A stretch of DNA of 64,000 nt from Escherichia coli. GTDB taxonomy: Bacteria; Pseudomonadota; Gammaproteobacteria; Enterobacterales; Enterobacteriaceae. A model generated the notes under the pieces. That model did no database searches. It was not told the DNA's origin and saw only the letters and a list, made by a program, of their open reading frames with translations. A program made the position numbers and the translations under genes. The stretch lies in assembly GCF_002854065.1 (NCBI RefSeq), contig NZ_CP024147.1. One strand, written 5' to 3'. Numbering within the stretch: position 1 is the first letter of the stretch; each line of letters starts with the position of its first letter. Of the stretch, positions 9,973 through 12,089 are shown one piece after another.

Positions 9973-10104
9973 ATGAAAAAGAAACCGGTTGCGCAGTTGG
10001 AGCGTCAGCATTCACTGCTGGAAAATCCATGTGCTTATGGGTTGTTATCGCAGTTCCAGGCTGCGATAGTCGTTAACTGTTTTACACTTAATAAAATAAT
10101 TTGA
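9973..10104 (+). CDS. yqgB: Small protein YqgB (43 aa) immediately upstream of speA
   Basis: ATG at 9973, translation [46 protein letters not shown] at 10102-10104; below the ORF-track size cutoff, found by reading the sequence. Confidence 0.7.
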
Positions 10105-10112
10105 GGTTCGCT

Positions 10113-12089
10113 ATGTCTGACGACATGTCTATGGGTTTGCCTTCGTCAGCGGGCGAACACGGTGTACTACGCTCCATGCAGGAGGTTGCAATGAGCTCCC
10201 AGGAAGCCAGCAAGATGCTGCGTACTTACAATATTGCCTGGTGGGGCAATAACTACTATGACGTTAACGAGCTGGGCCACATTAGCGTGTGCCCGGACCC
10301 GGACGTCCCGGAAGCTCGCGTCGATCTCGCGCAGTTAGTGAAAACTCGTGAAGCACAGGGCCAGCGTCTGCCTGCACTGTTCTGTTTCCCACAGATCCTG
10401 CAGCACCGTTTGCGTTCCATTAACGCCGCGTTCAAACGTGCGCGGGAATCCTACGGCTATAACGGCGATTACTTCCTTGTTTATCCGATCAAAGTTAACC
10501 AGCACCGCCGCGTGATCGAGTCCCTGATTCATTCGGGCGAACCACTGGGTCTGGAAGCCGGTTCCAAAGCCGAGTTGATGGCAGTGCTGGCACATGCTGG
10601 CATGACCCGTAGCGTCATCGTCTGCAACGGTTATAAAGACCGCGAATATATCCGCCTGGCATTAATTGGCGAGAAGATGGGGCACAAGGTCTATCTGGTC
10701 ATTGAGAAGATGTCAGAAATCGCCATTGTGCTGGATGAAGCAGAACGTCTGAATGTCGTTCCTCGTCTGGGCGTGCGTGCACGTCTGGCTTCGCAGGGCT
10801 CGGGTAAATGGCAGTCCTCCGGCGGGGAAAAATCGAAGTTCGGCCTGGCTGCGACTCAGGTACTGCAACTGGTTGAAACCCTGCGTGAAGCCGGGCGTCT
10901 CGACAGCCTGCAACTACTGCACTTCCACCTCGGTTCGCAGATGGCGAATATTCGCGATATCGCCACAGGCGTTCGTGAATCGGCGCGTTTCTATGTGGAA
11001 CTGCACAAGCTGGGCGTCAATATTCAGTGCTTCGACGTCGGCGGCGGTCTGGGCGTGGATTATGAAGGTACTCGTTCGCAGTCCGACTGTTCGGTGAACT
11101 ACGGCCTCAATGAATATGCCAACAACATCATCTGGGCGATTGGTGATGCGTGTGAAGAAAACGGTCTGCCGCATCCGACGGTAATCACCGAATCGGGTCG
11201 TGCGGTGACTGCGCATCACACCGTGCTGGTGTCGAATATCATCGGCGTGGAACGTAACGAATACACGGTGCCGACCGCGCCTGCAGAAGATGCGCCGCGC
11301 GCGCTGCAAAGCATGTGGGAAACCTGGCAGGAGATGCACGAACCGGGAACTCGCCGTTCTCTGCGTGAATGGTTACACGACAGTCAGATGGATCTGCACG
11401 ACATTCATATCGGCTACTCTTCCGGCACCTTTAGCCTGCAAGAACGTGCATGGGCTGAGCAGCTTTATTTGAGCATGTGCCATGAAGTGCAAAAGCAACT
11501 GGATCCGCAAAACCGTGCTCATCGTCCGATTATCGACGAGCTGCAGGAACGTATGGCGGACAAAATGTACGTCAACTTCTCGCTGTTCCAGTCGATGCCG
11601 GATGCGTGGGGGATCGACCAGTTGTTCCCGGTTCTGCCGCTGGAAGGGCTGGATCAAGTGCCGGAACGCCGCGCTGTGCTGCTGGATATTACCTGTGACT
11701 CTGACGGTGCTATCGACCACTATATCGATGGTGATGGTATTGCCACGACAATGCCTATGCCGGAGTACGATCCAGAGAATCCGCCGATGCTCGGTTTCTT
11801 TATGGTCGGCGCATATCAGGAGATCCTCGGCAACATGCACAACCTGTTCGGTGATACCGAAGCGGTTGACGTGTTCGTCTTCCCTGACGGTAGTGTAGAA
11901 GTGGAACTGTCTGACGAAGGCGATACCGTGGCGGACATGCTGCAATATGTACAGCTCGATCCGAAAACGCTGTTAACTCAGTTCCGTGATCAAGTGAAGA
12001 AAACCGATCTTGATGCTGAACTGCAACAACAGTTCCTTGAAGAGTTCGAGGCAGGTTTGTACGGTTATACCTATCTTGAAGATGAATAA
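10113..12089 (+). CDS. speA: Biosynthetic arginine decarboxylase, 658 aa
   Basis: ORF in track (listed from a TTG at 10101); ATG at 10113 gives [40 protein letters not shown]. Confidence 0.95.

Follow-up and report, generated by a model that had tools for sequence, protein, structure and literature searches.

Conserved position rather than conserved peptide suggests a cis-acting role for the small upstream open reading frame yqgB at the start of speA in Escherichia coli

Directly upstream of speA, the gene for the biosynthetic arginine decarboxylase (ADC), Escherichia coli carries a small open reading frame (ORF) of 43 codons, yqgB. Both lie in the window analysed here, a stretch of 64,000 nucleotides (nt) of E. 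coli DNA (contig NZ_CP024147.1) whose coordinates are used throughout. The account that we favour, and to which we would assign a probability of roughly 0.55, is that yqgB is a cis-acting upstream ORF (uORF) in the leader of a yqgG-yqgB-speAB messenger RNA, where ribosomes that terminate on it would license initiation at the first speA start and probably restrict Rho-dependent termination. Comparison across species suggests that this ORF matters through being translated as far as the speA start rather than through its peptide.

The initial annotation had placed at this junction a 43-codon ORF named yqgB that ends 8 nt before the speA start codon, and both the arrangement and the name stand. 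Sequence reading and a script put the ATG at 9973-9975, followed by 43 sense codons and a TGA at 10102-10104, and a gap of 8 nt (10105-10112) separates this stop from the speA ATG at 10113-10115. RefSeq labels the ORF 'acid stress response protein YqgB', directly 5' of speA, in all E. coli matches listed, and membership of the YqgB family follows from hidden Markov model scores above the curated cut-offs, with 113.3 bits for Pfam PF11036 (cut-off 24; residues 1-43 of 43) and 90.1 bits for NCBIfam NF033844 (cut-off 35; full length). The 1.1 kb around yqgB matches one RefSeq chromosome at 100% identity and occurs in 5,425 of 5,426 complete genomes, and the annotated gene order is metK (-), yqgD, yqgG, yqgB, speA (+). 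The proposed overlap between the yqgB stop and the Shine-Dalgarno (SD) sequence of speA is also real and comprises two shared bases (GA), with a correction of position: GAGG lies at 10103-10106 rather than at 10104-10107. It forms part of a GAGGT (10103-10107) with a spacer of 6 nt to the speA start (5 nt counting GAGGT), and TGAGG is kept in most Enterobacteriaceae and Erwiniaceae. The initial annotation's remark that only a size cutoff kept yqgB out of the ORF track would agree with its length of under 60 amino acids (aa). An ORF listing with a minimum of 20 aa gives yqgB as 48 aa, starting from an in-frame GTG at 9958 within a block, ACGTGTTTTAC, that is kept more widely than the yqgB ATG; Erwinia and two Serratia species lack the ATG and keep the in-frame GTG, and in Citrobacter and Pluralibacter only the ATG is in frame. 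The same listing calls a 662-aa ORF for speA, as TTG 10101 lies in the speA frame. A +1 shift at the yqgB AUU-UGA would enter that frame, solely in species with the stop arrangement of E. coli; a prfB- or antizyme-like +1 frameshift at AUU-UGA-G fusing YqgB to SpeA was rejected as a conserved mechanism, since 40 of 51 loci in the comparison below use the other frame.

In a single sequence this geometry is only mildly improbable, with 402 of 20,000 dinucleotide shuffles (2%) of the 200 nt upstream yielding an ATG-initiated ORF of at least 40 codons that ends within the last 15 nt. It stands above chance because it is kept in 51 of 53 Enterobacterales loci, one per species, where shuffles of the upstream sequence with the junction kept lead one to expect 25.7. 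For this comparison, DNA around speA was taken from 80 species, and 52 of them together with the window (53 loci) were retained as having the SpeA N-terminal extension and enough upstream DNA; a frame was counted when open for at least 30 codons upstream and provided with a start codon giving at least 20 codons. At the 51 loci, the upstream open frame ends at one of two TGA codons, at -11 or +5 relative to the speA ATG. The former, the TGA of TGAGG within the SD, serves 11 loci, among them those of Escherichia and Kluyvera and of some Citrobacter and Enterobacter, and Salmonella, fetched separately, has the same 8-nt junction. The latter, inside ATGTCTGA, serves 40 loci, among them those of Erwinia, Serratia, Rahnella, Yersinia, Hafnia, Edwardsiella, Pectobacterium and Dickeya. 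Two Rosenbergiella species, which lack the +5 TGA because their speA begins ATGACCGAC, are the only exceptions. Whether at the 8-nt junction of the window or at the -11 and +5 positions elsewhere, the stop lies close to or overlaps a downstream start on the same strand, as in coupled pairs; yqgB stands directly 5' of speA on that strand in the window, in RefSeq E. coli, in Salmonella and in 39/53 species loci with the core motif.

From the conserved core to the speA ATG there are eight different distances (46-178 nt), none divisible by 3, and the uORF is therefore never in the speA frame. Between the conserved GTG and the core lie 99, 105 or 108 nt, lengths that differ by multiples of 3 where both are in frame. 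In four Enterobacter-like loci the uORF tail carries insertions of 51-129 nt, and the frame is open in all four. Two of these insertions resemble the enterobacterial repetitive intergenic consensus (ERIC). In Pectobacterium, Brenneria, Dickeya and Acerihabitans the 5' block ACGTGTTTTAC is in frame and the frame is open to +5, the peptides being otherwise unrelated. As to the insertions themselves, they are palindromic and flanked by TATACC...GGGTATA (around 2330-2470 in loci L010 and L015; around 2415-2470 in L008 and L014), and those of 126-129 nt match an ERIC core in reverse at 28-30 of 44 positions. In the Pluralibacter gergoviae locus (L023) the GCGATAGTAGTT block, which is the 3' arm of the hairpin Hc described below, is duplicated in tandem (18 nt; about 2415-2450), and the frame is kept.

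What is conserved in yqgB differs from what is conserved in a protein-coding gene. A substitution test on the first 38 yqgB codons, in a gap-free alignment of 15 Enterobacteriaceae, gave a ratio of non-synonymous to synonymous divergence (pN/pS) of 0.86 in the yqgB frame and of 1.00 and 0.69 in the other two frames, and the entropy by codon position was flat (0.62, 0.69, 0.66). Codons 28-127 of speA in the same genomes, taken as a control, gave a pN/pS of 0.04 and entropies of 0.10, 0.04 and 0.88. The yqgB frame holds no stop, against 3.2 expected by column permutation (92/5000), and none against 4.2 expected when 18 species are used (37/5000); the same permutation revealed no stop depletion in the other two frames. 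Synonymous divergence (pS) is halved, at 0.31 in yqgB versus 0.60 in speA. A single-sequence protein search, whose word index is too coarse for 43 aa, returned Escherichia and Shigella only; a profile search found the family across Enterobacteriaceae and Serratia, its database proteins clustering at 43 and 48 aa in agreement with the two stop positions. The C-terminal tail of YqgB is variable and switches between two frames. With a pN/pS of 0.86, two stops and tolerated insertions, neither purifying selection on the YqgB amino acids nor a stable length and C-terminus was found, and the same ratio, together with the flat entropy and the variable tail, speaks for no conserved arrest or sensor segment in the peptide. 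By this comparative measure no protein-type constraint is seen on the amino acids of YqgB, while its frame is protected. Within the species, YqgB of the window has Leu rather than Ser at residue 9 and Ser rather than Thr at residue 14 when set against the E. coli species-representative genome (L002; window 9997-10014), and such non-synonymous differences fit a relaxed constraint on the peptide.

Conservation instead runs in nucleotide blocks that include third codon positions and reach 5' of the yqgB ATG. Two hairpins inside yqgB, Hb and Hc, and a predicted stem-loop over the speA start (Table 1) together have 83.9% of cells paired in 28 species, compared with 27-51% in slid controls, although the pairs were counted on a structure chosen from the E. 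coli fold, which biases this measure towards that structure. Their covariation score is 0.176 versus at most 0.108 in the controls and was reached by 0 of 500 shuffles. In Hc, 80% of cells are paired, 4 of 10 pairs are changed on both sides, and the 3' arm CTGCGATAGT is nearly invariant out to Edwardsiella. RNAalifold run on the 28 species recovered the helices only in part, the alignment shifting register in the coding region of Serratia and Yersinia. The stem-loop over the start, at -21.2 kcal/mol in E. coli, appears in a 263-nt fold and is also folded in Citrobacter, Kluyvera, Cedecea and Mangrovibacter; in E. coli the speA SD is predicted to be unpaired with a probability of 0.08-0.09 and the spacer with one of 0.13-0.15. 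For the internal speA start, an anti-SD hairpin (CUCC/GGAG) was considered and dropped, the E. coli fold leaving that SD fairly open (0.5-0.64). A motif, TGTTTTACA, occurs twice in most genera, at the uORF start (GTGTTTTACAATGATATG; window 9955-9975) and near its end (AACTGTTTTACAC; 10078-10090), and its first copy has diverged in E. coli (GTGCTTAATAATG); these copies and the invariant GGGTTGTT and AGTAGTCAAC are explained by no helix tried.

It is from published work that the transcript, its Rho-dependent 3' end, the translation of yqgB and the two SpeA isoforms are taken. Adams et al. 2021 (PMC7815308) included yqgB-speA in their nine candidate uORF pairs, counted yqgB among experimentally validated small ORFs, and cloned a speA 5' untranslated region with primers matching the window from 9615 (forward start) to 10112 (reverse end); placed on the window sequence, these primers delimit a leader of ~500 nt containing yqgG and yqgB. 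A likely promoter for it, proposed from the sequence, consists of TTGCAA (9578-9583) and TATAAA (9602-9607). The northern blot in that study was described as probably showing a transcript of yqgG-yqgB-speAB, and its Term-seq data (Adams et al. 2021, PMC7815308) include a 3' end at K-12 coordinate 3085854, tagged 'uORF', whose Rho score is 3.09 and which falls within a significant Rho termination region. This coordinate maps to window 10180, 57 nt into speA. The yqgB start codon was detected in vitro by INRI-seq, a Ribo-RET peak marks the primary speA start at 10113 (Meydan preprint), and a second in-frame start at Met27 has been reported to yield SpeA-70. A promoter and terminator scan found no terminator between yqgB and speA; it also returned a weak promoter-like site at 10073-10100 (9/12 matches), which was set aside as a speA promoter because it is weak and would leave almost no leader. 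In a 2026 Salmonella study, deletion of yqgB lowers speA and speB mRNA, ADC protein and spermidine, and the phenotype is reversed by polyamines. When YqgB was overexpressed in a screen, it induced heat-shock proteins of the aggregation response and gave no arrest-like response; an arrest-peptide reading was rejected on this aggregation-type response and on the lack of peptide conservation.

On the mechanism proposed here, yqgB would be translated within the long structured 5' leader of the yqgG-yqgB-speAB mRNA and would act in cis. Selection would keep the frame open from the conserved block to a stop on the speA start site, which would be the UGA in the SD, 8 nt before the AUG, in Escherichia, Salmonella, Kluyvera and a few further genera, whereas most other Enterobacterales would use the UGA inside AUGUCUGA, overlapping speA codons 2-3. 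On reaching the end of yqgB a ribosome would open the base pairs that cover the SD, the spacer and the first codons of speA, and would be released at the AUG; the first speA start and its product SpeA-74 would thereby be favoured, which amounts to translational coupling. With ribosomes then moving over the first ~60 nt of speA, the RNA would be shielded from Rho-dependent termination, and translation of yqgB would thereby also set the level of speAB mRNA. Whereas the geometry, its conservation, the peptide drift and the hairpins were observed in this work, inference begins with the coupling as such and extends to its link with Rho and to any regulatory signal. Coupling is the most economical mechanism, and of the two possibilities entertained by the initial annotation, coupling or a leader ORF for speA, both are consistent with the data, which support that interpretation in part. 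A cis role is best supported, by an ORF end that stays fixed at the start of speA, the drifting peptide, the predicted stem-loop of -21 kcal/mol and the published leader with its Rho-dependent 3' end; the hairpin, however, is not conserved beyond Enterobacteriaceae and some relatives.

Several considerations weigh against this account. Both stops sit in sequence conserved for other reasons, namely the SD and the Met-Ser-Asp codons of SpeA, so that part of their 'pinning' is automatic once the frame is open, and the relatedness of the species means that the counts overstate independence. Ribo-RET in vivo left the yqgB start undetected, which was ascribed to low abundance. The drop in speA and speB mRNA in the Salmonella deletion fits the proposal and is nevertheless non-discriminating, because the RNA structure was removed along with the ORF. 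The GAGGT SD is reasonable and could work unaided, and a ribosome terminating on it could repress rather than activate. The start stem-loop is not exceptional when compared with shuffles (z = -1.47, 16/200), its fold is found mainly in Enterobacteriaceae, and the start region folds differently in Serratia, Rahnella, Yersinia and Hafnia. In predictions of the unpaired probability for the 53 species, the first start (0.25-0.36) is no less accessible than the internal SD (0.30), and occlusion of the start site is thus unsupported as a general feature across them.

Three other explanations have to be considered alongside the cis-acting uORF. It is unlikely, although partly compatible with it as structure and uORF could work together, that the conserved entity is a structured leader RNA, riboswitch-like or binding a protein or small RNA, with the open frame a by-product whose translation plays no role. 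Nucleotide-level blocks reaching 5' of the ATG, the reduced pS relative to speA and the covariation of Hb, Hc and the upstream hairpins all point in that direction, as do several invariant single-stranded blocks (GGGTTGTT, AGTAGTCAACTGTTTTACAC). However, an RNA alone would not be expected to show stop depletion confined to the yqgB frame, indels between start and core in multiples of 3, a frame open through insertions and through the diverged Pectobacteriaceae sequence, or the 51 conserved ends where 25.7 are expected; yqgB is moreover translated according to published evidence, and Rfam 15 covariance models run against window 9200-10400 on both strands gave no match at E <= 1. Also unlikely is a trans-acting small protein, the 'acid stress response protein' or 'virulence promoting factor' of the family names in Pfam and NCBIfam, with adjacency to speA reflecting ordinary operon organisation. 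Its case comprises those names, the validated small ORF of Adams et al. (PMC7815308), an acid-shock phenotype from the deletion collection, attributed to Hobbs et al. 2010 in later work that cites it, and, from the 2026 study, binding of ranitidine to YqgB by surface plasmon resonance together with many deletion phenotypes. Set against it are a pN/pS of 0.86 with no third-position excess where speA in the same genomes has 0.04, a C-terminus in two alternative frames with 43- and 48-aa classes, tolerance of insertions of 17-43 codons and an unrelated peptide at the same place in Pectobacteriaceae. The conserved 'motifs' coincide with blocks fixed at all three codon positions and with the Hc arms, the phenotypes of the 2026 study track speAB and polyamines and the word 'complement' is absent from its main text, and overexpression induces heat-shock proteins responsive to aggregation. 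The cis-acting uORF is favoured over a trans-acting protein because the start block and the end position are conserved, the peptide is free and the helices are conserved.

The remaining alternative, which appears improbable, accepts the uORF and reverses its sign: ribosomes ending or pausing on the UGA in the SD would block the 30S subunit at the first speA start, or would uncouple translation such that Rho terminates, and more yqgB translation would mean less SpeA-74. Such repression would draw on the physical overlap of stop and SD, on the Rho-dependent 3' end just downstream and on the strong independent second start (AGGAGG, ATG 10191), which could carry basal speA expression. Yet deletion of yqgB in Salmonella lowers speA and speB expression, confounded as this deletion is; the stop at +5 in 40 of 51 loci lies past the AUG, the classic overlap of positive coupling; and the overexpression response does not resemble translation arrest, nor is the unconserved peptide like an arrest motif.

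Table 1. Features of the yqgB-speA region in window coordinates
Feature	Position	Strand	Basis
speA 5' leader as cloned by Adams et al.; holds yqgG and yqgB	9615-10112	+	Primers matched to window
In-frame GTG, 5 codons 5' of the ATG, within block ACGTGTTTTAC; possible alternative or ancestral start	9958-9960	+	
yqgB ORF (ATG, 43 codons, TGA)	9973-10104	+	Sequence; RefSeq; PF11036, NF033844; INRI-seq start in vitro
Hairpin Hb inside yqgB (CAGCA/TGCTG)	10005-10021	+	RNAalifold consensus; 87% of cells paired, 2/5 pairs changed on both sides
Hairpin Hc inside yqgB (TTATCGCAGT 10045-10054 pairs with GCTGCGATAG 10060-10069)	10045-10069	+	Fold; pair counts
yqgB stop TGA (10102-10104) overlapping speA SD GAGGT (10103-10107)	10102-10107	+	Sequence
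Predicted stem-loop over speA start (GTTCGC 10106-10111/GCGAAC 10153-10158; CTGACGA 10117-10123/TCGTCAG 10143-10149)	10106-10158	+	
speA, biosynthetic arginine decarboxylase, primary start, long SpeA-74 isoform	10113-12089	+	ORF, RefSeq, Ribo-RET peak (Meydan preprint)
Internal speA start (AGGAGG 10180-10185, ATG 10191-10193; Met27, short SpeA-70)	10180-10193	+	Sequence; literature

The rest of the leader and the N-terminus of SpeA hold further conserved elements. A second small ORF, yqgG (47 aa, Pfam PF23505), occupies 9736-9879 (+); it is reported as translated and was detected after sequential peptide affinity (SPA) tagging (Weaver et al.), and a published Term-seq 3' end at K-12 3086295 maps to 9739, at its start codon. 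Starting 15 nt past the yqgG stop, at 9895-9924 (+), is a terminator-like hairpin, GCTCTTGT/ACAAGAGT followed by TTTTCTCGTGG, and just 5' of the yqgB start there is a second hairpin, CCGAAC/GTTCGG (9930-9935/9948-9953). In the first stem 7 of 8 pairs are changed on both sides across 24 species, and for the upstream hairpins 79% of cells are paired versus 32-55% in slid controls, with a covariation of 0.302 versus at most 0.18. The published supplement text lists no Term-seq 3' end at the terminator-like hairpin (K-12 ~3086109-3086119), for which reason this hairpin may be a conditional attenuator. The yqgC ORF (71 aa, Pfam PF17430; 9622-9837, -) is antisense to yqgG and the conserved speA leader, and neither ribosome density nor tagged protein was seen for it (Weaver et al.); conservation of the leader on the opposite strand may have made the yqgC family an artefact. 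The 26-codon N-terminal extension of SpeA (10113-10193, +) has a pS of 0.24 versus 0.60 downstream and a pN/pS of 0.55. The SpeA match of Morganellaceae, Budviciaceae and more distant taxa begins near Met27, and upstream of it an ACTCC..AGGAG resembles E. coli codons 20-25; it would therefore seem that uORF and extension co-occur.

Among known systems, a close one is mdtU-mdtJI, the leader of the E. coli spermidine exporter (Adams et al. 2021, PMC7815308), in which, as in yqgB-speA, the long 5' leader of an operon in the polyamine pathway carries a short uORF and a Rho-dependent 3' end lies just inside or beside the downstream ORF; that study has yqgB-speA as a candidate of the type. It differs in that the C-terminal peptide of MdtU is conserved and spermidine dependence has been shown, whereas the YqgB peptide is unconserved and its stop lies on the downstream start site. 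As in secM-secA and classic structure-dependent coupling, the upstream ORF ends by a downstream SD predicted to be paired, the upstream ribosome would open the pairing, and stop and start are a few nt apart or overlap. However, SecM is a conserved arrest peptide responding to secretion, yqgB gives no sign of arrest, and its masking hairpin is a prediction that is strong mainly in Enterobacteriaceae. The ornithine-sensing leader speFL-speF of the inducible ornithine decarboxylase (PMC6386406) likewise places a leader ORF 5' of a polyamine-biosynthesis decarboxylase in Enterobacteria and links translation with Rho-dependent termination, a link that for yqgB is proposed here; SpeFL, in contrast, is a conserved ornithine-binding arrest peptide, while yqgB has neither protein-level constraint nor an arrest-like overexpression response. 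As a member of the regulatory leader-peptide type (mdtU, speFL, tnaC), yqgB qualifies by position as a short ORF in a 5' leader, with its translation coming from the literature (INRI-seq, validated small ORF). The ORF of the window is also a full-length member of the YqgB family (PF11036 / NF033844), whose descriptions imply a functional protein that the substitution pattern found here does not support. Both the uORF idea and the gene yqgB were already in the literature, and the comparative evidence is new but incremental.

It would be a larger claim, and one we hold as tentative and rather doubtful, that the whole ~500-nt speA leader is an undescribed switch of translation and transcription, combining yqgG, the covarying terminator-like hairpin, yqgB with its hairpins and a masked first start, in which uORF translation, possibly tuned by polyamines, arginine or pH, sets Rho attenuation of speAB and the ratio of SpeA-74 to SpeA-70. 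If this were true, the acid-stress, virulence and colistin phenotypes ascribed to a 'YqgB protein' would be cis effects on speAB, and YqgB would be a mis-assigned drug target. Caution is in any case advisable, as deletion phenotypes that may simply reflect reduced speAB expression underlie both labels, 'acid stress response protein' and 'virulence promoting factor', as well as the recent proposal of YqgB as a drug target. Overall, speA is the entry to the arginine route to putrescine and spermidine, and a uORF fixed in position and free in sequence on its first start would offer a concrete handle on the control of speA expression and isoforms, tied to a mapped site of Rho termination.

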